Position numbers and translations under genes: made by a program
Shown here: positions 17,869 through 29,094 of the stretch, in pieces
How the letters are laid out: the number at the start of each line of letters is the position of its first letter
How positions within the stretch are numbered: position 1 is the first letter of the stretch
Notes under the pieces: generated by a model
What the model was told of the DNA's origin: nothing
Seen by the model: only the letters and a program-made list of their open reading frames with translations
The model's database searches: none
Source of the DNA: an uncultured Verrucomicrobiota bacterium
GTDB lineage: Bacteria > Verrucomicrobiota > Kiritimatiellia > CAIKKV01 > CAITUY01
Direction: 5' to 3'
Assembly: GCA_964458765.1 (NCBI GenBank)
Contig: CAYWKN010000002.1
Span: forward strand, 1 to 50,884
DNA: 50,884 nt

Positions 17869-17900
17869 TTGACGCGTACACTATGTTATATCATAGTGTA
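17869..17900 (+). promoter_or_regulatory. Promoter-like hexamers overlapping a 9-6-9 perfect inverted repeat, directly upstream of hsdM
   Basis: TTGACG (17869-17874), 17 nt, CATAGT (17892-17897). Palindrome TACACTATG-ttatat-CATAGTGTA at 17877-17900, 3 nt before ATG 17904. The function is inferred. Confidence 0.4.
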
Positions 17901-17903
17901 TGC

Positions 17904-19724
17904 ATGATTACACCTGATCTTGCCAAAACCGTGCGGATTTTGCGGTCACGACTGCAACTCAGCCAGGAACAACTCGCCCAGCGGCTCAACGTCTCTTTCG
18001 CCACCGTCAACCGCTGGGAAAACGGAAAATCCGAACCCCAGGGTGCGACACGGGACGCTCTCCAAGCGCTTCTTGACGAAGTCGGCGAAGGCGAATTGGG
18101 GCTCCGCACGGAATCGGTCCAGGAAACCATCCCCGCGCGCCGGAAGCGGGGCACCGCCCGGAGCAATGTGCTTTCCACCAAGTCCATGGAACAAATGCTC
18201 TGGGATGCCGCCTGTTCCATCCGCGGGGAAAAGGACGCCCCCAAGTTCAAGGATTACATCCTCCCCCTGGTCTTCATCAAACGCCTGTCGGATGTCTTCG
18301 AGGACGAAGTGCAGCGACTGACCGAAACCTATGGCGACGCCAAGACCGCCTTGGAGATTCTTGAGTCCGACCACACCCTGGTCCGATTCTATATCCCACC
18401 GGAAGCCCGGTGGCCGGTCGTCAGCGGTCGCCAACCCTTCGCCTGGCCCGCCAACCACAAGCCCAAGACGCTGGGCGAACAACTCACCACCACGATCCGC
18501 GCCATCGTCAAGCAGAACCAAAGCCTGAGCGGCGTCATCGATATCGTGGACTTCAACGAGACCCGCAACGGCGAGCGCGAAATCAGCGACAAGGCCTTGT
18601 CCGGCGTCATCGAAACCCTTTCCGACCCCCGTTACCGGATGGGCCTGCACGATGTCGAACCGGATTTCCTCGGCCGCGCCTACGAATACCTCCTGCGCAA
18701 GTTCGCCGAGGGCCAGGGCCAGAGCGCCGGGGAGTTCTTCACCCCGCAGGAAGTCGGGTGGCTCATGGCCTACATCGTGCGGCCACGACAGGGCGAGAAC
18801 GTTTACGATTACGCCTGCGGCTCCGCCGGCCTCCTCATCAAGTGCGAATTGGCTCTGCAACAACGCGAACGCCGCATCTCGCGTCCGCTCAAACTCTACG
18901 GACAGGAACTCACCGGCTCCAGTTATGCCATCGCCCGCATGAACATGGTCGTCCACGACATGGAGGGCGAAATCGTCCGCGGCAATTCGATGACCAACCC
19001 CAAGTTCCGCGACTCGGATACCCGGCTCCGGAAATTCGACATTGTCGTGGCCAACCCCATGTGGAACCAGCCGTTCGAGGAGTCCACCTTCCAGAACGAT
19101 CCCTTCGCACGGTTCGAGGAACAGGGCGGTCTCCCCGGCGGCAAGGCCGACTGGGCCTGGCTCCAGCACACGCTGGCCTCCCTCAATCCGACCGGGCGCG
19201 CCGCCGTCGTGCTGGATACCGGCGCCGTCACCCGCGGCAGCGGCAGCCGCAACGAGGACAAGGAGAAACGCGTCCGCAAGTGGTTCGTCGACCAGGACGT
19301 CATCGAGGGCGTGATCCTTCTGCCCGACAATCTTTTCTACAACACCAGCGCGCCCGGCATCATTGTGGTGCTCAACCGCGCCAAACCGGCCTCGCGCAAG
19401 GACCGGATCATCCTGGTCAACGCCGGGGCCGAGTTCAAGAAGGGCCAGCCCAAGAACTTCATTCCCGAGCCCGGCATCCGGAAAATCGCCGATGCCTTTA
19501 TCAAGGCGGAGGACGTGCCGAACTTCGTCAAGGTCATCCCCACCGCCGAGGCGGTCCGGAACGACTACAACCTCTCCCCGTCCCGCTACGTGGGAGTGGC
19601 CACCGAGGAAGTTTACCGCGAGATTCCGGAGATCGTGGCGGAATTGCGCCAGCATGAGGCCAAGGCCGCCAAGGTCGGCAAGGAACTGGCGCGGATACTC
19701 AAACAGATCGGGGTAGCGGGATGA
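17904..19724 (+). CDS. hsdM: Type I restriction-modification methyltransferase subunit with N-terminal XRE-type HTH domain
   Basis: N-terminus LRSRLQLSQEQLAQRLNVSFATVNRWENGKSEP (HTH_3-like). HsdM_N-like region (MLWDAACSIRGEKDAPKFKDYILPLVFIKRLSD). SAM motif YDYACGSAGLL. Motif IV region VVANPMWNQ. Alternative ATG 17883 lies inside the palindrome. Confidence 0.93.
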   Translation: MITPDLAKTVRILRSRLQLSQEQLAQRLNVSFATVNRWENGKSEPQGATRDALQALLDEVGEGELGLRTESVQETIPARRKRGTARSNVLSTKSMEQMLWDAACSIRGEKDAPKFKDYILPLVFIKRLSDVFEDEVQRLTETYGDAKTALEILESDHTLVRFYIPPEARWPVVSGRQPFAWPANHKPKTLGEQLTTTIRAIVKQNQSLSGVIDIVDFNETRNGEREISDKALSGVIETLSDPRYRMGLHDVEPDFLGRAYEYLLRKFAEGQGQSAGEFFTPQEVGWLMAYIVRPRQGENVYDYACGSAGLLIKCELALQQRERRISRPLKLYGQELTGSSYAIARMNMVVHDMEGEIVRGNSMTNPKFRDSDTRLRKFDIVVANPMWNQPFEESTFQNDPFARFEEQGGLPGGKADWAWLQHTLASLNPTGRAAVVLDTGAVTRGSGSRNEDKEKRVRKWFVDQDVIEGVILLPDNLFYNTSAPGIIVVLNRAKPASRKDRIILVNAGAEFKKGQPKNFIPEPGIRKIADAFIKAEDVPNFVKVIPTAEAVRNDYNLSPSRYVGVATEEVYREIPEIVAELRQHEAKAAKVGKELARILKQIGVAG

Positions 19725-20908
19725 AAGCAAAGCGGGAAAAGCAGGTGCCTTCGCTTCTCCAGGTAAAACGTAACTCGGATGCCGTCGCCCAAGAAGAGAC
19801 AGGCAATTATCGGGACATGCTCGATGGCGTGATCCTCTTAATTAAGGAGGGCCGCCAGGTATCCGCCCGCACAGTGGACACCGTGATGACAGCGACATAT
19901 TGGTTGGTTGGGCGGCACATTGTGGAATTCGAGCAACAAGGCAACCCGCGCGCCCCATACGGTGTCGAATTGCTAAAACGCCTGGCAAATGACTTGAAGT
20001 CCCATTTTCAACGGGGCTTCGACGTGGACAACCTCCAGCGGATGCGCCGTTTCTACCTCGCATATGTTTCCGCCGAAAATTACGCGACACTGTCGCGTAA
20101 ATCCGACAGCAGAACACCGGCAAATTACGCGACAGTGTCGCGTAATTCATTGCCACCGCGTCTCGCAAGTCTCACGGCCCGCTTCCCATTGCCATGGTCC
20201 GCCTATGTCCGCCTGCTCTCGGTGAAAAACGAACACGCCCGGCGCTTCTACGAAACCGAAGCCATGCGGGGCGGATGGGGAGCCCGCCAACTCAACCGCC
20301 AAATTGACGCCCTTTTCTATGAGCGCACAGCCTTGTCCACAAACAAGGCAAAAATGCTGAAAGAAGGCGCGAAACCCCACCAAGGGGAAGAGCCCGCCGC
20401 CGAGGAACACATCAAGAATCCCTATGTGCTGGAGTTCCTGGGACTCAAGGATGAATATTCCGAAAACGATATCGAAGAAGCATTGATCCTGCATCTCGAA
20501 AGGTTCCTTTTGGAACTGGGGGGGGATTTCGCTTTTGTCGGACGGCAACGCCGGTTGCGCGTGGGTGACGAGTGGTATCGCATTGATCTGCTTTTCTACC
20601 ATCGCAGGCTACGTTGTCTGGTCATCATTGACCTGAAACGCGGCAAGTTTACCCATGCCGACGCCGGTCAAATGCACCTCTATCTCAATTATGCGCGGGA
20701 GCATTGGACCCTGCCCGGCGAAAACCCACCTGTTGGCCTTATTCTCTGCACACACAAGGATGAAGCCCTTGCCCATTATGCATTGGAAGGTCTACCCAAC
20801 AAAGTTCTGACCGCCGAGTATCGCACAACCCTGCCTGAGGAATCCGTGATAGCCGCCGAACTCGACCACACTCGCCGCCTTCTGGAAGCGCGGGAGAAGA
20901 AAGCATGA
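19721..20908 (+). CDS. DUF1016/YhcG-family PD-(D/E)xK nuclease-like protein
   Basis: ATGA overlap with the hsdM stop. NPYVLEFLGL...DIEEALILHLERFLLELGGDFAFVGRQRRL...YRIDLLFYHRRLRCLVIIDLKRGKFTHADAGQMHLYLNY matches the YhcG C-terminal nuclease-like core. Lower GC (28/60 in a sample line). Confidence 0.85.
   Translation: MKAKREKQVPSLLQVKRNSDAVAQEETGNYRDMLDGVILLIKEGRQVSARTVDTVMTATYWLVGRHIVEFEQQGNPRAPYGVELLKRLANDLKSHFQRGFDVDNLQRMRRFYLAYVSAENYATLSRKSDSRTPANYATVSRNSLPPRLASLTARFPLPWSAYVRLLSVKNEHARRFYETEAMRGGWGARQLNRQIDALFYERTALSTNKAKMLKEGAKPHQGEEPAAEEHIKNPYVLEFLGLKDEYSENDIEEALILHLERFLLELGGDFAFVGRQRRLRVGDEWYRIDLLFYHRRLRCLVIIDLKRGKFTHADAGQMHLYLNYAREHWTLPGENPPVGLILCTHKDEALAHYALEGLPNKVLTAEYRTTLPEESVIAAELDHTRRLLEAREKKA
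20080..20147. repeat. Twin perfect palindromes TTACGCGACA-N-TGTCGCGTAA inside the DUF1016 gene
   Basis: 20080-20100 ttacgcgacaCtgtcgcgtaa and 20125-20145 ttacgcgacaGtgtcgcgtaa. The second extends to a 25-bp palindrome at 20123-20147. Centres are 45 bp apart, and the copies are exact reverse complements of each other. Confidence 0.9.
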
Positions 20909-20984
20909 ACAAGGCAAAAACAACCCTTCCGCGCTCCGCCTCTCTCGCGCCACCTACTAACGCGCACCACGCTGCAAACTTGAA

Positions 20985-21038
20985 GTCACAATTTGTGACC
21001 TCAAGTTACGAGGACAACCGGTCACACATTGTGACCGG
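20985..21038. promoter_or_regulatory. Two operator-like palindromes GTCACA-N3-TGTGAC between the DUF1016 gene and hsdS
   Basis: gtcacaatttgtgac (20985-20999) and ccggtcacacattgtgaccgg (21018-21038, 9-3-9 perfect). Centres are ~36 bp apart. Regulatory role is inferred only. Confidence 0.35.
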
Positions 21039-21046
21039 TCTGCCCC

Positions 21047-22459
21047 ATGGCGGACACCGAGAACTGCCTCTCTCTCCTTCACCAAAAGGCTGAATCCATG
21101 GGACAAAAAACAAATAAACCACCCACCCGAAAAGGTGACACAGGCTTCCAGCCTGTGATTCCCGACAAGATCACGGGCAAGATGCCCGTGTCACGTTTGC
21201 CGGAAAACTGGCGCCAAACACGCATTGGCGATGCCTACTGTTTTACCCGACGGCCAAAAGGGTTGCGTTATTCCGATTACGCCACAATCCCTTTCATTCC
21301 GATGAACTTGATCCCACAGGGAGGAGCGACACAACCATCGTTCGTCGACAAGACAGCGGCGCAGATCACCAGCGGCACCTACTTTGAACAAGGAGACCTC
21401 TTGCTCTCCAAGATCACCCCGTCTTTTGAGAACGGCAAACAGGCCATCGCATCCAACCTCCCCATTCCATTCGGGGTCGCGACAACCGAGGTTATCCCTA
21501 TCCAGGCCCTCACTGGAACAAGCGACACCCATTTCTTATTCTACTGCCTGCTACAGCCGGAAGTGCGGCAGGCCATCGCATCGAAAATGGAAGGCAGCAC
21601 GGGTCGTCAACGCGTTCCCGAGCACGTCATCAGGGACTGGATCATCCCCCTCCCCCCCCTGGCCGAACAGGAACGGATTGCCGCCATCCTATGGAAGATC
21701 CAGGAAGCCATCGCAAGCGAGGCGGCGATCATCCGCAACGCCCGGGACCTCAAGAAATCCCTACTCCGCCACCTCTTCACCCACGGCCTCCACAACGAAC
21801 CGCTGAAGGAAACCGAGATCGGACGAATGCCGGAGAGTTGGGACGTTGTGACCATCGGCCATGAGTGCGGCACATGTACCTCCGCTATGAGTTACACCCA
21901 GTTCATTCATCTGGAGGAATCGGTCGAAGGGGTGATAGTACATGGTGTCAAAGTGTCAGATATGAACTTGCCGGGCAACGAAGTGCGCTTCGAGTCGGCA
22001 AACCTTGTGAAGACGCTTCCACTATCAATAGCCCAAAAGAGAACGGTTCCGTCCGGATCAGTTGTTTTCCCAAAACGAGGGGCAGCGATTGCGACGAACA
22101 AGAAACGCCTGACCACCACTTGGACAGTGCTCGATCCAAATCTGATCGCAATTGTGCCGGGCAAAGACGTCGAGTCAACTTTTCTCCTAAACTGGTTTCT
22201 CACTTTCGACTTGGCGTCAATTACTGAACCGGGGCCGACGCCGCAACTGAACAAGAAGAACGTCGTGCCGCTTTTATTCCCGAAGCCCACAAAGGAAGAA
22301 CAGCGCGAAATAACTCCCATTCTGAGCACCGTGGACGAGAACATCGCGATTCACGAGGCAAATCAGCAGACCTTGCGGGACCTGTTCAGGGCGGTGCTGA
22401 ATGGGTTGATGAGTGGAAAGATGAGGGTGGGAGAGTTGGAGATGGAGGAGGCGAGGTGA
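21047..22459 (+). CDS. hsdS: Type I restriction-modification specificity subunit
   Basis: Two target-recognition halves, each opening with LPE(N/S)W...IGD/IGH. Conserved helical spacers (PLPPLAEQERIAAILWKIQEAI... and FPKPTKEEQREITPILSTVDENI...). Start uncertain: ATG 21047, 21098 or 21182. Confidence 0.85.
   Translation: MADTENCLSLLHQKAESMGQKTNKPPTRKGDTGFQPVIPDKITGKMPVSRLPENWRQTRIGDAYCFTRRPKGLRYSDYATIPFIPMNLIPQGGATQPSFVDKTAAQITSGTYFEQGDLLLSKITPSFENGKQAIASNLPIPFGVATTEVIPIQALTGTSDTHFLFYCLLQPEVRQAIASKMEGSTGRQRVPEHVIRDWIIPLPPLAEQERIAAILWKIQEAIASEAAIIRNARDLKKSLLRHLFTHGLHNEPLKETEIGRMPESWDVVTIGHECGTCTSAMSYTQFIHLEESVEGVIVHGVKVSDMNLPGNEVRFESANLVKTLPLSIAQKRTVPSGSVVFPKRGAAIATNKKRLTTTWTVLDPNLIAIVPGKDVESTFLLNWFLTFDLASITEPGPTPQLNKKNVVPLLFPKPTKEEQREITPILSTVDENIAIHEANQQTLRDLFRAVLNGLMSGKMRVGELEMEEAR
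21135..21194 (+). repeat. 60-nt double-hairpin repeat element, copy A (5' end of hsdS)
   Basis: gtgaCACAGGCTtccAGCCTGTGattcccgacaagatCACGGGCAagaTGCCCGTGtcac. Read in-frame it gives DTGFQPVIPDKITGKMPVS. Confidence 0.9.
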
Positions 22460-22463
22460 ACAA

Positions 22464-25400
22464 ATGAAACCGAAAAACAAACCGCAACTGCGACTTCTTG
22501 ATGACTTACCTGCCGGCATGACGGAAGTCGCGGGGGACCGTTTCAACCATGGTGTCTATGCTGACAGTCTGCGCGACATCCTATTGTCCAACAGGCCCGG
22601 CATCAGTGTTGGCCTCCTTGGCAAATGGGGACAGGGGAAAAGCACCATCGTCAACCTGCTCCACAAGACGCTGTCGGGGAAGGCTCAGGTTGTCGTTTTC
22701 AACGCTTGGAAGGCCCGGGGTGATTCTGTCCGGAGGCAGATGCTGCTTGAAGTGCTTCGACAAATCGGGTCGGGTGAATATGAGAAACTGAGGCGGTTCA
22801 CCAATACGAGGTTGCCGTTTGCGTTATGGACTGCGGAGGAGCGTGAACCGTTCTCTTCCGCCAATATCCGCCACTTCCTGTTTAAGGTTCGCCATCTGCC
22901 ACTATGGATTCAGGGTGCGATCGCACTGGCCACGATCTGTGCCGTTGCTGTCACGATAACGACAATTGGCGTCTATCACGGGAATTCCACGGCTAAAGAT
23001 TTTGCTGGTTCAATCGCATTCCTAGGAGGACTTGTGATCTCATCTTTCGCTGCCGTTCTAGGATGGTTCAAAGAAACCCGCAAGAACGAATTAATGGTGT
23101 ACACAGAACCTGTATCAGAAAGCCTTACGCTCAAGTACCCGGAACAGTTCCAACGCGTATTCGAACAGGAGGTCGCGAAACACTGCAAGGCTTGTGGACG
23201 CCTGATCATCGTCGTCGACGATCTCGACCGATGTGAACCGGCCACCGTTGTTGAAGTTCTAGCTGCCATAAGGCAGTTCTCCTGCGGACATATCCACGAC
23301 CCCGGTTGTGCAGTCCAAGACTCACTGGACTGTCAATTTCTCGTTCCGTGCGACGAAGAACAGCTGGTCTTGGCGTTGGAATCAGATGGGCACAGGCGCA
23401 AGGGAACTGACGTTTGTTACCATAACTACCGTGATGAATTGTTGCGCAAGTTCTTTGATATCGTTGTAAGGATGGATCCTCCACTGCCTCAGGACTTGGT
23501 AACTTATGCTGAGACCTTGGTGACATCAGGAGTTATTGACATCGATGTCTCAGCAGCAAAAGAAATCATTGGAGTGGCCGATCCACGCGATCCACGGCAG
23601 GTCAAAAAACTGCTGAACGCACTCACACTGGCACTCGACAAGGCGCACCGGTTTCACGACATCGGCTTATTGCCTGGCTGCGAGGAGTTTCCAGATCTCC
23701 AAAAGACTCTTATCCTCTTGACGGCTCTTCGGGAGACGACCCCCTATGTCTACGATGAAATATGCAGAATGCCAGACGTCCTGGACAATCTATCATCACT
23801 CCCTCTTGAGAAGTTCAACAAGACAGAGATCGAAAAGGCAACAACAATAAGGCAACGTTGTGGATACGTGTCGTCTGTGACTGTCAGTCTCCTGACCTCT
23901 TTCCACTGGGACTCCCGCCTTTCCGGCATAAAGGACGGACCTGCTTTTATCAAAGCGGTCGGGGATGGGGACGAAACTTCCTTTAAGAACATCCTTCAGC
24001 AAGTTGAGGAGGGAGACCGAACTCGCCTGTTAGGGTTCTTCGGTGACAACGTCACAACAACCACACGTACACCAGCCCAACTGCGAAAGTCGCTTATGCT
24101 CCTGGGAGACTATGGCCTGTTGGGTGACTTGCATGAGAAGGCCGCCGCTTCAGTTCTGGATGCACTTCTGAAGACTGCGGGACTCCACCACTACTTCCCT
24201 AACGCATTGGAAGGATTGGCGCGACTGGATTGGATATCTCGACAAATACCCGCCCTGCATACTGATGCCAGGGATGACTTGGTTGAGTTTGTACTCCAGA
24301 ACTACATGAAAGAACCGAAGACACGCGAACATGAACTCAGATTCCTACTACAAACACCGTTACTGATGCGAGAAGACCTGAAGTCGCGCTTCTGTGGTAC
24401 ACTTGAAAAGTACCTGAAGGATCTGAAAGATCCCGAATGGCAGATGCATGTCGAACGCATTGTTCCGATGCTCCCAAGTGACCAAAGGCAGTGTGCTGGG
24501 TTTGTCCCTGACTTGGTCCCGTGGATGGTGCAGCGGTTATGGACCGATGACGTGAGAACGAAAGATCCGGCGGCGTGGTCCACACCTAAGTTGGCCGCCG
24601 CCATGATCGGGCATGATGCCGACAAGGCAAAAGAATGTCTTCAGAATCTCTTCGGCACCACTGGTAAACTGCAATCACCCCAACGGATTCAAAGCACGCC
24701 AGGCATTTGGCCACTCTGGAAGTTCATAACGCACCTGATGACAATCCTCGATCCCAAGAGTATTCCTGACTTTTATCCGCATCTCCAGAAATGGTTGTCG
24801 CAACAGAGTTCGAAAGAGGAAGTCGAGTGCGTCCTCAATGCCATGAAGGCACAGATACTTGCATTCAAGACTCCACAACTGAAGGAGATCGCGCAGGTCA
24901 TCTTCACTTCCATTCAAAATCAACCCGACCAGACCTGGGCGTTGACGTATCTCCCATCGAAAAGCGCCGCCACCTCCCAAAAGGTCCAATGGGACTTCTT
25001 ATGCCAGTCATTCTTCGCGAAGTTTAAGGAACACGCTTTGCAGAACGGCGTTTTCCCCAATTGGTATCAAACCATTCTCAAAAGGGTCGTTGACGACCAG
25101 TGGCCAATAACGGCCGAAGCCGACATTCTGCTGGGATACAAGATCAGAACGCAACAGGAGTCGGAGAAGTGGTTCAGCAACCTTGAACCAGTGATTAGGG
25201 GTGAGTGTCCAGTAACAAGAAAGGATATCCTTGCGCGAATGGCAGCGCAAACGGACAACATAACGGCATTTCGAATGGGAATCAAGGTGTGGACCAGCAA
25301 TATGGAGGAAAAGGAAAGGGATGAGACGTGCCGAGCAATCGCCAGTTTCCTTGAAAAGGCACCGGCGGCGGTTCTTTCCTCGAATTCAGGCGAACTCAAT

Positions 25401-25679
25401 GCCTTCACCGACATATCTTTGGCTGGTGCAGCACTGGATTATACTGTGGATCTACTGAGAGAGGATGAAAAGTGGTTACAGGGAAAAGAGCAACTGCTTG
25501 GCTTTCTTGCGAGTCGAGTTCAACTGCTGAATGGCGAGCACCGGGAGGCATTGAAGCGCAGAGCCAAGTTCCTTCAGGCTCAAAGTGACAATGTTCTGAA
25601 AACGCTTGGTTCCAAGGTGTTGGACGTTATGGAAGAGAATCAGAAACACACATCAACATTTGTGAACGACCCTACGTAA
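22464..25679 (+). CDS. KAP-family P-loop NTPase with intradomain transmembrane hairpin and ~800-aa uncharacterised C-terminal region
   Basis: Walker A GLLGKWGQGKST (aa ~51-61). Two hydrophobic helices (LPLWIQGAIALATICAVAVTITTIGVY, FAGSIAFLGGLVISSFAAVLGWF). Then Walker B LIIVVDDLDRCEP (aa ~247-259), the KAP architecture. 4-nt gap after hsdS and 21 nt before hsdR. Low GC (27/60, 26/60, 33/60 in three sampled lines). Confidence 0.85.
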   Translation: MKPKNKPQLRLLDDLPAGMTEVAGDRFNHGVYADSLRDILLSNRPGISVGLLGKWGQGKSTIVNLLHKTLSGKAQVVVFNAWKARGDSVRRQMLLEVLRQIGSGEYEKLRRFTNTRLPFALWTAEEREPFSSANIRHFLFKVRHLPLWIQGAIALATICAVAVTITTIGVYHGNSTAKDFAGSIAFLGGLVISSFAAVLGWFKETRKNELMVYTEPVSESLTLKYPEQFQRVFEQEVAKHCKACGRLIIVVDDLDRCEPATVVEVLAAIRQFSCGHIHDPGCAVQDSLDCQFLVPCDEEQLVLALESDGHRRKGTDVCYHNYRDELLRKFFDIVVRMDPPLPQDLVTYAETLVTSGVIDIDVSAAKEIIGVADPRDPRQVKKLLNALTLALDKAHRFHDIGLLPGCEEFPDLQKTLILLTALRETTPYVYDEICRMPDVLDNLSSLPLEKFNKTEIEKATTIRQRCGYVSSVTVSLLTSFHWDSRLSGIKDGPAFIKAVGDGDETSFKNILQQVEEGDRTRLLGFFGDNVTTTTRTPAQLRKSLMLLGDYGLLGDLHEKAAASVLDALLKTAGLHHYFPNALEGLARLDWISRQIPALHTDARDDLVEFVLQNYMKEPKTREHELRFLLQTPLLMREDLKSRFCGTLEKYLKDLKDPEWQMHVERIVPMLPSDQRQCAGFVPDLVPWMVQRLWTDDVRTKDPAAWSTPKLAAAMIGHDADKAKECLQNLFGTTGKLQSPQRIQSTPGIWPLWKFITHLMTILDPKSIPDFYPHLQKWLSQQSSKEEVECVLNAMKAQILAFKTPQLKEIAQVIFTSIQNQPDQTWALTYLPSKSAATSQKVQWDFLCQSFFAKFKEHALQNGVFPNWYQTILKRVVDDQWPITAEADILLGYKIRTQQESEKWFSNLEPVIRGECPVTRKDILARMAAQTDNITAFRMGIKVWTSNMEEKERDETCRAIASFLEKAPAAVLSSNSGELNAFTDISLAGAALDYTVDLLREDEKWLQGKEQLLGFLASRVQLLNGEHREALKRRAKFLQAQSDNVLKTLGSKVLDVMEENQKHTSTFVNDPT

Positions 25680-25700: not shown

Positions 25701-28700
25701 ATGAGTTCACTCGCCGTAGAATCGACAACCGTCCAATCCCCTCTCCTCCGTTATGCGGCGGAGGCCGGCTGGACGCCCATTCCCCCTTCGGATGCCGTGA
25801 AACTGCGCCAGGGGGAGGCGGGCACGATGTTCTACGGACTGGTGGAGAAAACACTGCTCAAACTGAATCCCGGCATCGTCACCACCGAGAACGTCGCCGA
25901 AATCGTCCGGCGCATCGAAGGGGTTCGCAACTCCATCGAGGGCAATGCCGAAATCCTGGCCTGGCTTCGCGGGGAACGATCCGTCTATGTCCCCTCGGAA
26001 AAACGCCAGCGGAACGTCCGGCTCGTGGATTTTGACAAGCCAGCCGCCAACACCTTCCACGTCACCCCGGAATGGCGGTACACCAATGGCTCGCAGTCGA
26101 ACCGGGCCGATATCATGTTCCTCGTCAACGGCATCCCCGTCGCCCTCGTGGAAACCAAGAGCGCCAAGAAACGCAACGGCATCGAGGAAGCCCTGATCCA
26201 GGTCCGCCGCTACCACCGCGAAACCCCCGAAATGCTCACCGCCCCCCAGGTGTTCAACCTCACCCACCTCATCGACTTCCACTACGGCGCCACCTGGAAC
26301 CTCGACCGCAAGGACCTGTTCCGATGGAAAAGTGACACAGGCTTCCAGCCTGTGTCAGCACAACCGTCCGCACGTGACACAGGCTTCCAGCCTGTGATCC
26401 CAACCAACACCACAGGCAAGATGCCTGTGTCACCCTCCTTCGAAGCCCTCATTAAGTCTTTCTTTGACCGACAACGATTCCTGACCCTCATCAAGGAATG
26501 GATCCTGTTCTACGTCAAGGACGACGAACTCCGGAAAACCGTCCTCCGTCAACACCAGGTCCGCGCTGTGGAAAAGGTGCTCGCCCGTTGCGCCGACCCC
26601 CGGAAAACCACCGGCCTGGTCTGGCACACCCAGGGTTCCGGCAAGACCTTCACCATGATCACCGCGGCGCGCCTCCTGCTGGAAGGTGACACAGGCTTCC
26701 AGCCTGTGATCTCTACCAACTCCACAGGCAAGATGCCTGTGCCACCCTCCCAACGTGACACAGGCTTCCAGCCTGTGATTCCTTCCAAGCCCACCGTCCT
26801 CCTCATCATCGACCGCAACGAACTGGAAGGACAACTCACCGGCTGGGTGGAACGACTGCTCGGCGAATTGACCGACGAGGATATCGCCATCGAACGGGCC
26901 ACCGGCAAACAACGCCTCCGGGAACTGCTGGCCTCCGACTTCCGCGGCCTCATCATCTCCACCATCCACAAATTCGACGGCCTCCCCAAGGCCGTCAACA
27001 AACGCGACAACATCTTTGTGCTGATCGACGAAGCGCACCGCTCGACCGGCGGCGACCTCGGCAATTACCTCATGGGCGCCCTTCCCAACGCCACCTTGAT
27101 CGGCTTCACCGGCACCCCCATCGACAAGACCGCCTATGGCCAGGGCACCTTCAAGACGTTCGGGCGCGAGGACAGGGACGGCTATCTGGACAAGTATTCC
27201 ATCGCGGAGTCCATGGCCGACGAAACCACGCTGAAACTGAAGTACGCGCTCGCCCCGAACGATATCCGCCTGCCCGACGAAATCCTGGAGAAGGAATTCC
27301 TCGCCCTGGCGGAAGCCGAGGGCGTCAGCGATGTGGAGGAACTGAACCGCATCCTCGACAAGGCTGTCACCCTCAAGGCTTTCCTCAAATCGGAGAGTCG
27401 CATCAAGGCCGTGGCGGCGTTTGTGGCGGACCATTTCCGCGCGAATGTCCACCCGCTCGGCTACAAGGCCTTCCTCGTGGGTGTGGATCGCGAAGCCTGC
27501 GCCCTTTACAAGCAGGCGCTCGATAAACTCCTGCCCCCGGAATGGGTGACCCCCATCTATACCGCCGCGGCCAACGACAGCGAACGCCTCCCCATCGTCG
27601 CTGCGCACCAGACGGCCGGTCCCGGCGAGACCACCGCCCGCAAACTGTTCATCAAGCCGGGTATGGATCCCCAAATCCTGATCGTGACCGACAAACTCCT
27701 GACCGGCTATGACGCGCCCATCCTGTACTGCATGTACCTGGACAAGCCCATGCGCGACCATGTCCTGCTCCAGGCCATCGCGCGCGTGAACCGGCCCTAC
27801 GAGGCGGAGGACGGCACCAAGAAACCCTGCGGTTTCGTTCTGGATTTCATCGGCGTATTCGGCAAATTGAAGAAGGCGCTCGCCTTCGACTCGAAGGAAG
27901 TCAGCGGCATTGTCGAGAACATCGAGGTCCTGTTCGCCCGCTTCAAGGAGTTGATGACCGGCCGCGCCGGCAGTTATCTGGCGCTGATCGGGAAAGCGAT
28001 GGACGACAAGGCCGTCGAGCGCGCCATTGACGCCTTTGCCAACAGGGAAAAGCGGGAGGAGTTCCAGGCCTTCTTCAAGGAGGTCGAAACCCTGTACGAA
28101 ATCCTCTCGCCATCGCCCGAACTGCGGGACTTTATCGAGCCTTTCGCGAAACTGGCCGCGTTGTACGGGATTGTGCGGAACGCCTTCGAGGTCAAGACGC
28201 CGCTGTACACCGACATCGCCAGGAAGACCGAAACCCTCGTCCGGGAAACCGCGGCAGCCTACGGGCTCAAGGGCGCCACAAAAGTCGCGGAAATCAGCGC
28301 CGGAACGTTAAAAAGCATTCAGGAGGGCGCCTCCTCCGACGGCAGCAAGGTTGTCAGTCTCGTCAAGTCGCTTGTCAAGGCGGCTGAGGACAGCGGCGGT
28401 GAGGAGCCCTATCTGATCCCGATCGCCGAACGTGCCAAGGCCATCATGGAGGCGTTCGATGACCGGCAGGAATCCACGCGCCATGCCTTGGCCGAAGTAC
28501 AGAGCCTGGCGCGGCAAAAGATCGAGGCGGAGGAAGAACGGCGGCGCACGGGCATGGGCATCAATACGTTCACCCTATACTGGGTGTTGAAGGGCGAGGG
28601 CATCCGGAATGCCCCCGAACTGGCGGCCACCCTCAATGCCATCATCGAACGCTTCCCCAACTTCAAGGACAACGGCGAGGAACGCCGGCAACTCAAGGCC

Positions 28701-28787
28701 GAGGCCTACCGGGCGCTGTTGCCGGTTGTCGGGGGGAAGACCATGGTCGCCCTCGCGGAACGTATCCTCGCGCTGAAAAGGAAATGA
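25701..28787 (+). CDS. hsdR: Type I restriction enzyme R subunit (nuclease + SF2 translocase)
   Basis: PD-(D/E)xK region ADIMFLVNGIPVALVETKSAKK. Helicase motifs HTQGSGKTFT, VLIDEAHRS, GFTGTP, QAIARVNR. Intact 1028-aa ORF despite two repeat insertions. Confidence 0.95.
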   Translation: MSSLAVESTTVQSPLLRYAAEAGWTPIPPSDAVKLRQGEAGTMFYGLVEKTLLKLNPGIVTTENVAEIVRRIEGVRNSIEGNAEILAWLRGERSVYVPSEKRQRNVRLVDFDKPAANTFHVTPEWRYTNGSQSNRADIMFLVNGIPVALVETKSAKKRNGIEEALIQVRRYHRETPEMLTAPQVFNLTHLIDFHYGATWNLDRKDLFRWKSDTGFQPVSAQPSARDTGFQPVIPTNTTGKMPVSPSFEALIKSFFDRQRFLTLIKEWILFYVKDDELRKTVLRQHQVRAVEKVLARCADPRKTTGLVWHTQGSGKTFTMITAARLLLEGDTGFQPVISTNSTGKMPVPPSQRDTGFQPVIPSKPTVLLIIDRNELEGQLTGWVERLLGELTDEDIAIERATGKQRLRELLASDFRGLIISTIHKFDGLPKAVNKRDNIFVLIDEAHRSTGGDLGNYLMGALPNATLIGFTGTPIDKTAYGQGTFKTFGREDRDGYLDKYSIAESMADETTLKLKYALAPNDIRLPDEILEKEFLALAEAEGVSDVEELNRILDKAVTLKAFLKSESRIKAVAAFVADHFRANVHPLGYKAFLVGVDREACALYKQALDKLLPPEWVTPIYTAAANDSERLPIVAAHQTAGPGETTARKLFIKPGMDPQILIVTDKLLTGYDAPILYCMYLDKPMRDHVLLQAIARVNRPYEAEDGTKKPCGFVLDFIGVFGKLKKALAFDSKEVSGIVENIEVLFARFKELMTGRAGSYLALIGKAMDDKAVERAIDAFANREKREEFQAFFKEVETLYEILSPSPELRDFIEPFAKLAALYGIVRNAFEVKTPLYTDIARKTETLVRETAAAYGLKGATKVAEISAGTLKSIQEGASSDGSKVVSLVKSLVKAAEDSGGEEPYLIPIAERAKAIMEAFDDRQESTRHALAEVQSLARQKIEAEEERRRTGMGINTFTLYWVLKGEGIRNAPELAATLNAIIERFPNFKDNGEERRQLKAEAYRALLPVVGGKTMVALAERILALKRK
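26332..26433 (+). repeat. Hairpin repeat: half copy D (26332-26357) plus full 60-nt copy B (26374-26433) inside hsdR
   Basis: D is gtgacacaggcttccagcctgtgtca (11-bp stem). B is gtgacacaggcttccagcctgtgatcccaaccaacaccacaggcaagatgcctgtgtcac. Translated SDTGFQPVSAQPSARDTGFQPVIPTNTTGKMPVS. Confidence 0.9.
26686..26779 (+). repeat. Hairpin repeat: full 60-nt copy C (26686-26745) plus half copy E (26755-26779) inside hsdR
   Basis: C is gtgacacaggcttccagcctgtgatctctaccaactccacaggcaagatgcctgtgccac. E is gtgacacaggcttccagcctgtgat. Translated GDTGFQPVISTNSTGKMPVPPSQRDTGFQPVIPS, located just after helicase motif I. Confidence 0.9.
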
Positions 28788-28791
28788 CGCC

Positions 28792-29094
28792 GTGTCCCGC
28801 AAGAAGTCATCGGCACCATGCAGGCGCTCACGTTTCAAGGCCGAGGTCGCCCGATGGTCGGAAAAGATCAAGGTCCGGCCCAGGCAGATCCGGTTGCAGC
28901 GCATGACGCGGCGATGGGCCTCCTGTTCCGCCGGGGGCCGGGTCTCCTTTAACGCCGACTTACCGGACAAGCCCCGCCGTTTCCGGGAGTATGTGATCGT
29001 GCACGAACTTCTGCACCTGAAAGTCCCCAACCACGGGAAGTTGTTCAAGAGTTTGCTCAAGGCATACCTTCCGGGCCGGGACTCGCCATCGTAA
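28792..29094 (+). CDS. Short DUF45/YgjP-like (SprT/WLM-type HExxH) metallopeptidase-like protein
   Basis: GTG start 4 nt after the hsdR stop. RRWASCSAGGRVSFNADL...REYVIVHELLHLKVPNHGKLFKSLL matches the C-terminal core of DUF45. At only 100 aa it is shorter than the ~230-aa proteins I associate with this family. Confidence 0.7.
   Translation: MSRKKSSAPCRRSRFKAEVARWSEKIKVRPRQIRLQRMTRRWASCSAGGRVSFNADLPDKPRRFREYVIVHELLHLKVPNHGKLFKSLLKAYLPGRDSPS

Follow-up and report, generated by a model that had tools for sequence, protein, structure and literature searches.

Among proteins encoded within Type I restriction-modification (R-M) operons, the described case nearest in position to the one treated here is PrrC, whose gene lies between hsdS and hsdR (PMC12707154) and which, according to Payne et al., is almost exclusively R-M-embedded (bioRxiv 10.1101/2024.01.29.577857). 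The same group mined Type I R-M-embedded genes systematically as defence candidates, and the PDC classes of PADLOC, including PDC-S20 and PDC-S02, derive from a survey that examined genes lodged within BREX, DISARM and Type I R-M systems (bioRxiv 10.1101/2024.01.29.577857). In the 50,884-nt stretch of uncultured Verrucomicrobiota DNA analysed here (contig CAYWKN010000002.1; "the window"), this slot is occupied by an open reading frame (ORF) of 1,071 amino acids (aa) for a transmembrane nucleoside triphosphatase (NTPase) of the KAP clan, referred to below as KAP. The presence of the KAP gene in a Type I operon is confirmed, and the question addressed is what such a protein might be doing there.

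In build, the nearest characterised proteins are Tmn and EF_KAP. Tmn is a single-gene anti-phage NTPase of the YobI family with two transmembrane helices inserted in its P-loop domain (bioRxiv 10.64898/2026.03.01.708804; bioRxiv 10.1101/2022.08.21.504612). Its NTPase comprises residues 1-390 and is accompanied by ARM/HEAT-like solenoid arms and a variable C-terminus; the arms bind a phage trigger, T2 RIIB, the membrane complex is decameric, and activation by infection brings ATP turnover and Mg2+ export, leading to plasmolysis (bioRxiv 10.64898/2026.03.01.708804). Synergy with Gabija, Septu I and PrrC has been reported, in the absence of any conserved operon architecture (bioRxiv 10.64898/2026.03.01.708804; bioRxiv 10.1101/2022.08.21.504612). 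EF_KAP and related transmembrane KAP NTPases are likewise antiphage and require Walker B and the C-terminal region, and the founding analysis of the family, as summarised in the same paper, had proposed that prokaryotic KAP NTPases regulate membrane-associated complexes restricting foreign DNA (PLoS Biol 2026, PMC13552941). An earlier note on this DNA, made from the sequence alone, had stated that no characterised defence system with such an architecture was known; with Tmn having the same build and EF_KAP-type proteins being antiphage, that statement is out of date.

The interpretation preferred here, at a probability of roughly 0.55, is that KAP is an autonomous, Tmn-like, membrane-anchored sensor-effector NTPase with anti-phage function, co-expressed with the restriction enzyme as a second layer. 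By analogy with Tmn, KAP would oligomerise in the membrane, its solenoid arm would recognise a phage-encoded protein or an infection-induced state, and recognition would switch on NTP hydrolysis and arrest the infected cell by an effect on the membrane or on ion flux, in this way catching phages that had escaped or inhibited restriction. The link to R-M would then consist of co-expression and of co-inheritance with hsdS as a cassette, a layered defence in a hot-spot slot, and most likely involves no obligate physical dependence on the restriction enzyme.

The ORF proposed in the earlier note, a KAP NTPase with a hydrophobic pair between Walker A and Walker B, was confirmed by its motifs and by a match of aa 31-322 to Pfam KAP_NTPase (PF07693) at 74.3 bits (cutoff 20); the same profile matched 40 of 40 scanned relatives. 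Walker A is GKWGQGKST (aa 53-61) and Walker B is LIIVVDDLDRCEP (aa 246-258), within which LIIVVDDLDR spans aa 246-255. The two hydrophobic cores (aa 152-170 and 184-202, Kyte-Doolittle means 2.25 and 2.05) correspond in the AlphaFold2 (AF2) model to helices 147-171 and 177-214, and a hydrophobicity scan of the rest of the protein gave no further segment. All 53 aligned relatives have at least one hydrophobic segment at the hairpin position, and most have two, with the sequence itself unconserved there. Because the flanks of the hairpin are K/R-rich and the turn between its helices is short (aa 172-176), the predicted arrangement fits an in-out-in topology in which both halves of the NTPase are cytosolic.

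A search of 5.8 billion proteins identified 57 homologues matching most or all of the length of KAP at 26-39% identity, 53 of which (1,066-1,167 aa) make up alignment A1. Invariant positions cluster in the NTPase module and include G56, G58 and K59 of Walker A, D252 and D253 of Walker B, and P295-C296-D297, together with R328-K329-F330-F331-D332 and R378/K381/N385 (alignments A1 and A2); few invariant or nearly invariant positions fall in the solenoid, and block conservation is 0.5-0.7 in the NTPase against about 0.35 in the solenoid. At the start of the protein L12 is invariant and M1, L11 and D14 are nearly so, and because residues 1-14 are thus conserved across homologues the true start, as judged from the alignment, is the upstream ATG at 22464. 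The stored gene call (P0001) is 1,053 aa, 18 residues shorter, and would fit a start at M19 (22518).

The AF2 model, built with the homologue alignment, has a mean predicted local distance difference test (pLDDT) score of 86.6, with most of the solenoid above 90, and consists of a P-loop alpha/beta core, a projecting helical hairpin and unbroken alpha-helical repeats from about aa 400 to 1067. When the model was compared with the PDB by Foldseek, the top 50 matches were HEAT/ARM solenoids (E 3e-5 to 1e-3), with SF3B1, importin-13, CAND1/2, PP2A-A and mTOR foremost. Scans with Pfam, NCBIfam and PADLOC returned nothing past aa 322, no housekeeping match was found for the C-terminal region, and a sequence search of the PDB gave generic P-loop matches to ABC transporters only. 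The earlier note had hoped for a hidden effector fold in aa 270-1071; the region proved instead to be an alpha-solenoid, and the idea that the C-terminus conceals an effector such as a nuclease, a protease or a pore-forming toxin was rejected, the Foldseek matches being solely to HEAT/ARM solenoids. We infer that the solenoid is a sensor or scaffold arm, and a fast-evolving solenoid beside a conserved NTPase is the pattern that would be expected of a diversifying sensor.

The comparison with Tmn rests on the published description of that protein, on architecture, and on the Pfam YobI matches of KAP relatives. In both proteins an N-terminal NTPase of about 390-400 aa holds two transmembrane helices between Walker A and Walker B, and a long all-alpha ARM/HEAT-like solenoid carries no recognisable enzymatic effector; both are host-encoded, with a conserved N-terminus and a variable C-terminus. 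As modelled, the window protein appears to match every architectural feature of Tmn that is open to testing, and the Pfam family to which Tmn belongs, YobI-ATPase (PF20693), is matched by 34 of 40 relatives of KAP (best E 4e-14). Several observations nevertheless weigh against a Tmn-like, autonomous KAP. The window protein itself has no PF20693 match at E<=0.01, and no PADLOC Tmn match was obtained among 48 proteins (the window protein, 39 relatives and 8 distant ones), the presence of a Tmn model in the PADLOC copy being unconfirmed. Tmn is reported on many E. coli plasmids (bioRxiv 10.1101/2022.08.21.504612; bioRxiv 10.64898/2026.03.01.708804); tblastn against PLSDB with the NTPase module of the window protein and with a distant relative of 1,263 aa found no E. 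coli plasmids. The turn between the membrane helices is very short in the window protein, compared with about 20 residues in Tmn, and the KAP family is mostly R-M-embedded, whereas Tmn is reported to show no conserved operon architecture. The tight overlap of hsdS and KAP and the 19 of 24 loci beside R-M, both described below, amount to a stronger linkage than that of Tmn and may indicate more than passenger status. No sequence-level link between KAP and Tmn is demonstrated, the likeness being one of architecture, and judged by these profile matches the KAP family appears distinct at the sequence level. KAP, with 1,071 aa, is also shorter than Tmn clade I proteins (about 1,270 aa), and a Tmn-like pore or oligomer for KAP would be pure extrapolation from the better known protein.

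Co-expression with the restriction enzyme can be read from the operon itself. HsdM, HsdS and HsdR were all matched (Pfam, PADLOC, NCBIfam) on one strand, identifying a Type I R-M operon with the order HTH-hsdM / yhcG / hsdS / KAP / hsdR / short ygjP, all on the plus strand (HTH, helix-turn-helix). The hsdS-KAP-hsdR slot and its gaps, 4 nt between hsdS and KAP and 21 nt between KAP and hsdR, agree with those given in the earlier note, as shown by the gene coordinates. Because these spacers are so short and no terminator-like site was found anywhere on the plus strand of the operon, the co-transcription claimed there is almost certain; it is a reasonable reading that KAP is transcribed with the hsd genes, an internal promoter being possible.

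The size of the family was estimated by a profile search over 1.84 billion representative proteins. About 27 representatives scored above 900 bits (the close family), and 607, 4,680 and 18,421 were found at E <= 1e-30, 1e-10 and 1e-3, respectively. Second-tier proteins of about 1,090 aa have BLAST similarity to KAP confined to the first 390 residues; however, profile-profile comparison of the second tier with the KAP family by hhalign (probability 100%, E 4e-59, 1,000 aligned columns) showed full-length homology, and the two therefore form one superfamily of considerable size. Uncultured lineages often carry it, among them Saccharibacteria, Paceibacterota, Omnitrophota, Chloroflexota and DPANN archaea. 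The proteins of about 1,090 aa are frequent in uncultured lineages with small genomes, which besides Saccharibacteria and Paceibacterota include Gracilibacteria, Aenigmatarchaeota, Pacearchaeota and Nitrosopumilaceae (loci including L011-L062); devoting 3.3 kb to a defence gene is remarkable in genomes of that size. A search of IMG/VR viral contigs found no KAP relative, and the family is host-encoded.

The rival that survives best would make KAP a PrrC-like guard. It is possible, although tentative, that KAP is kept latent through attachment of its solenoid to the Type I complex, for which the variable HsdS or the M2S core would be the most plausible docking site; with similar reserve, an anti-restriction protein of the Ocr, ArdA or Stp type might disable the enzyme, whereupon the NTPase would fire and arrest the cell through the membrane. 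The position of KAP in the slot of prrC favours such a guard, and so does the genomic context of its relatives. Context was taken from 169 loci collected from metagenome contigs of uneven length, with neighbours annotated, partly by home-made means, from precomputed Pfam tables, iterated profiles made from the window Hsd proteins, and extra Pfam/PADLOC scans. Dereplication at 90% identity gave a close family of 30 loci including the window, 24 of which were informative, having either sufficient flank or an R-M neighbour visible despite a short flank. Type I hsd genes contain or adjoin KAP at 16 of the 24, and R-M of some kind adjoins it at 19 of the 24; by a general estimate, not a computed control, fewer than about 1% of random genes lie as close to a Type I locus. 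Homologues are thus strongly enriched in R-M neighbourhoods, where the earlier note had taken a lack of enrichment to speak against its idea of an R-M-coupled effector.

The arrangements at these loci are diverse. In eight, here called lineage A (window, L001, L086, L163, L008, L006, L100, L164), the order is (HTH-)hsdM ... hsdS-KAP-(x)-hsdR-ygjP, and in a second Type I lineage of four (L167, L168, L096, L097) KAP lies between hsdM, accompanied by Fic, and hsdS. Four further Type I loci are arranged R-M-S-KAP (L007), M-KAP (L090), M-YhcG-ResIII-KAP (L102), and convergently with a Fic-hsdM unit (L093). The three loci at other R-M-like modules have KAP followed by a DUF1156 methyltransferase and an SNF2 helicase (L162), KAP preceded by ResIII, AAA_15, PDC-M41B and an N6_N4 methyltransferase (L087), and KAP followed by Mrr (L005). 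Hsd-like neighbours occur at 11 of the 37 informative second-tier loci. Among these is a sister lineage of the Type I family found in the window, its HsdM sharing 55-57% and its HsdR 50-53% identity with the window proteins, in which a distant KAP homologue lies upstream, in the order KAP-M-S-R; this too favours a guard. The position of KAP therefore varies among S-KAP-R, M-KAP-S-R, R-M-S-KAP and KAP-M-S-R. With partners that span Type I enzymes, DUF1156-methyltransferase/SNF2, ResIII/N6_N4-methyltransferase and Mrr modules, and with a variable place in the operon, a conserved protein-protein interface of the kind needed by a guard is unlikely. Moreover, five informative relatives have no R-M within 9-10 kb (L003; L088; L165, in a retron and toxin-antitoxin island; L166, beside an SNF2 helicase; L169). 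The KAP family is in this respect not like PrrC with its nearly exclusive R-M embedding, and standalone relatives together with variable operon position argue against any obligate coupling of KAP to R-M.

Position in the slot is weakened as evidence in a further way. Corresponding slots of related operons also hold AbiD, HEC-01A (an AAA_15 ABC ATPase), HEC-09 (NYN), PDC-S62, Fic, patatin, YhcG/PDC-S02 and PDC-M48B, the last occurring with patatin. Since unrelated defence genes use the same slots, these operons act as defence hot-spots, and slot position alone proves little about a guard. Defence genes beside KAP were located at L164:12394-14332, L087:1014-9730, L163:5234-7754 and L167:12379-14400, and a PDC-M41B/M30B module with ResIII and an N6_N4 methyltransferase also adjoins KAP in related operons. 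A plasmid search for close relatives of the window HsdR lineage, with regard to the contents of the slot between hsdS and hsdR, returned only matches of 25-30% identity.

The tie between KAP and hsdS is tight. The stop codon of hsdS and the ATG of KAP overlap by 4 nt in six of the eight co-linear lineage-A operons, most of which have a GGAGG Shine-Dalgarno sequence inside the 3' end of hsdS; the window has the same GGAGG with its 4-nt gap, and from this start context KAP is predicted to be translationally coupled to hsdS. Rates of divergence point the same way. Within lineage A, identity to the window proteins is 67-70% for HsdM, 57-60% for HsdR and 26-37% for HsdS, and for KAP it is 30-34% overall, 43-46% in the NTPase module and 22-26% in the solenoid. 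KAP accordingly diverges about as fast as HsdS, and lineage-A KAPs are no nearer the window KAP than are those of unrelated Type I lineages. On a rough neighbour-joining tree, drawn without support values, KAP clades track R-M lineages, in that the second-lineage KAPs group together, with some non-Type-I loci mixed into the lineage-A clade.

Base composition adds to this picture. The low G+C noted earlier for KAP is correct in direction (0.512, against 0.618 in hsdM and 0.611 in hsdR) but is not peculiar to that gene, hsdS and yhcG being low as well. G+C at third codon positions (GC3) is 0.81 in hsdM, 0.62 in yhcG, 0.67 in hsdS, 0.57 in KAP and 0.80 in hsdR, compared with 0.78-0.88 in flanking genes, and it steps sharply at the hsdM/yhcG and KAP/hsdR borders. 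Because GC3 is low with sharp borders at gene boundaries, yhcG-hsdS-KAP (19721-25679) would seem to be a compositionally foreign cassette of specificity subunit plus cargo, imported between a resident hsdM and hsdR; taken with the identity pattern, this suggests that hsdS-KAP either diversifies fast or is repeatedly swapped as a unit. An origin of the gene in a phage or mobile element was considered and rejected, there being no relatives on IMG/VR contigs, no tRNA in the window, and housekeeping genes on the flanks.

It is these three features, the tight coupling to hsdS, the 19 of 24 loci adjoining R-M, and the divergence in parallel with HsdS (the solenoid at a similar rate, and with the common low GC3 of the imported cassette), that keep a guard function alive. 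In its boldest form, which we regard as rather doubtful, the solenoid would read the state of the restriction enzyme, perhaps through the co-swapped, variable HsdS, and KAP would be a membrane-acting analogue of PrrC that collapses ATP or ion homeostasis when phage anti-restriction proteins neutralise the Type I complex. If that were true, the superfamily of proteins of about 1,090 aa (607 clusters at E<=1e-30) would be guards of R-M across bacteria, candidate-phyla-radiation lineages and archaea.

Improbable, in our estimation, is a role for KAP as an accessory or regulatory R-M subunit, for example an NTP-driven membrane tether or an assembly/disassembly chaperone by which the Type I complex would be positioned or controlled at the inner membrane. 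Such a subunit would be expected to be coupled in translation to hsdS and inherited with it, as KAP is, solenoids are typical protein-protein scaffolds, and the founding proposal of membrane-complex regulation in the restriction of foreign DNA, known here through its summary in PMC13552941, is in the same spirit. However, the solenoid evolves far faster than HsdM and HsdR, standalone relatives exist, and the nearest characterised proteins, Tmn and EF_KAP, defend autonomously. Type I systems, moreover, work in the great majority of cases without a KAP-like protein. Very improbable is the idea that KAP arrived with a swapped hsdS cassette and is now functionless, a neutral passenger or a decaying remnant, for although its cassette is compositionally foreign (GC3 0.57-0.67 against about 0.8 in flanking genes), the 1,071-codon frame, all family-invariant catalytic residues, the start context and the Shine-Dalgarno sequence are intact and the model is confidently folded. 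An autonomous, Tmn-like second layer of defence thus remains the preferred account of KAP, and Table 1 gives the coordinates of the protein's parts and of the operon around it.

Table 1. Positions in the window of the KAP gene, its parts, and the other elements of the Type I operon
Feature	Position	Strand	Basis
KAP-clan, Tmn-like transmembrane NTPase with solenoid tail, 1,071 aa	22464..25679	+	ATG start
KAP NTPase module, aa 1-400, conserved portion	22464..23663	+	Alignments A1, A2; 43-46% identity to operon-matched homologues
KAP membrane hairpin, aa 147-214, inserted between Walker A and Walker B	22902..23105	+	Sequence and AF2
KAP all-alpha HEAT/ARM-like solenoid, aa ~401-1067, fast-evolving	23664..25664	+	AF2, Foldseek
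hsdM, N-terminal Xre-type HTH fused	17883..19724	+	N6_Mtase 291 bits, HsdM_N 85 bits, HTH_3 37 bits; PADLOC MTase_I 7e-155
yhcG/DUF1016 PD-(D/E)xK nuclease	19721..20908	+	YhcG_C 193 bits, DUF1016_N 126 bits; PADLOC candidate PDC-S02 1e-129
Two perfect 15-bp palindromes GTCACA-N3-TGTGAC in the yhcG-hsdS spacer (possible operator sites)	20985-20999 and 21021-21035		
hsdS specificity subunit	21047..22459	+	Pfam Methylase_S, 2 stretches; PADLOC Specificity_I 5e-42
hsdR restriction/translocase subunit	25701..28787	+	TIGR00348 396 bits vs cutoff 284; Pfam HSDR_N, SWI2_SNF2, ResIII, T1R_D3-like
Short YgjP-like ORF, 100 aa, final operon gene	28792..29094	+	Pfam YgjP-like 95 bits

Other parts of the operon show features of their own. 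The HTH region of HsdM (17883-18080, aa 1-65) matches HTH_3 at aa 19-56 and HTH_31 at aa 13-65, and the fusion is kept in the related operons L001, L163 and L164; the HsdM of the sister lineage L018/L110/L111/L113, shorter by about 90 aa and alignable only from residue 96 of the window protein, apparently lacks it. The fused HTH may act as a built-in controller, in the manner of a C protein. The two palindromes lie 36 bp apart in a 138-bp spacer, two matches where 0.11 would be expected by chance, and the palindrome is absent from all 169 related loci; they are possible candidate operators for an HTH regulator, upstream of hsdS-KAP-hsdR. At the head of the operon (window 17869-17900) a 9-bp inverted repeat, TACACTATG-N6-CATAGTGTA, overlaps the hsdM ATG at 17883, and the promoter-like site TTGACG-17-CATAGT is found in the same interval; the two together suggest a leaderless or autoregulated operon start. 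The second embedded gene, yhcG, on which the earlier note is silent, has its start overlapping the hsdM stop by 4 nt and lies between hsdM and hsdS also in L001, L100 and L163. The YgjP-like ORF at the other end covers no more of the metallopeptidase profile than its C-terminal half (positions 113-196 of 207); equivalents of 102-109 aa come after hsdR in L001, L163 and L164, and L167 and L168, of the second Type I lineage, have full-length versions of 235-245 aa.

Little is understood of membrane-associated phage defences, and among proteins built like KAP, Tmn alone has been studied mechanistically. The KAP family appears to be a distinct and widespread sister family to Tmn, overlooked by current defence-finder models and, unlike Tmn, persistently wired into R-M operons and apparently exchanged with the specificity subunit. 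The operon is a clonable system for asking whether Tmn-like effectors guard or back up restriction enzymes, and how defence cargo comes to be exchanged at the variable middle of Type I operons. Adding the family to PADLOC/DefenseFinder would allow hundreds of hypothetical proteins of about 1,100 aa to be annotated, many of them in small-genome uncultured lineages.

Comparison with other known systems sets the family further apart. With QatA, PifA and PDC-S20 KAP shares a KAP P-loop core, all 40 of the 40 scanned family members matching their models at 1e-8 to 1e-19, but these PADLOC matches are weak, partial and N-terminal only. KAP was effectively left unassigned while the Hsd subunits were matched, as the earlier note had predicted for a PADLOC run. 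The PDC-S20 profile, of about 460 aa, describes a shorter KAP family than that of the 1,071-aa window protein, and PifA lacks transmembrane helices. An identification of KAP as QatA was rejected, since NCBIfam NF041923 gave 59 bits where 600 are required and KAP lies among hsd genes, with no qatBCD nearby. EF_KAP, compared by description, likewise combines transmembrane helices with a KAP NTPase domain and has a C-terminal region to which no function is assigned. It differs in that one helix is N-terminal and one lies inside the NTPase domain, in a C-terminal region of 322 aa, and in its discovery, which came from linkage to a gene for a small serine recombinase and not from R-M operons.

PrrC and its EcoprrI host system resemble the locus in a gene co-transcribed between hsdS and hsdR of a Type I operon and in an N-terminal NTPase domain, and by this analogy a second-line role is plausible for KAP. 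However, PrrC is cytosolic and joins an ABC-type ATPase to a HEPN anticodon nuclease, whereas KAP is a KAP-clan NTPase with membrane hairpin and solenoid and no nuclease fold; Pfam, PADLOC and Foldseek scans of KAP gave no HEPN, PrrC or ABC-family assignment, and the KAP family, unlike PrrC, has standalone members. In the literature on rlo genes, COG4928 and PF07693, of which coverage was incomplete, no KAP gene was described in hsd loci, nor, within the same coverage, was a paper found on the KAP family or on a Tmn-like protein conserved inside hsd operons. The architecture and the principle of embedding were known already, and what the literature covered does not describe is a distinct family of this build with a conserved linkage to R-M.

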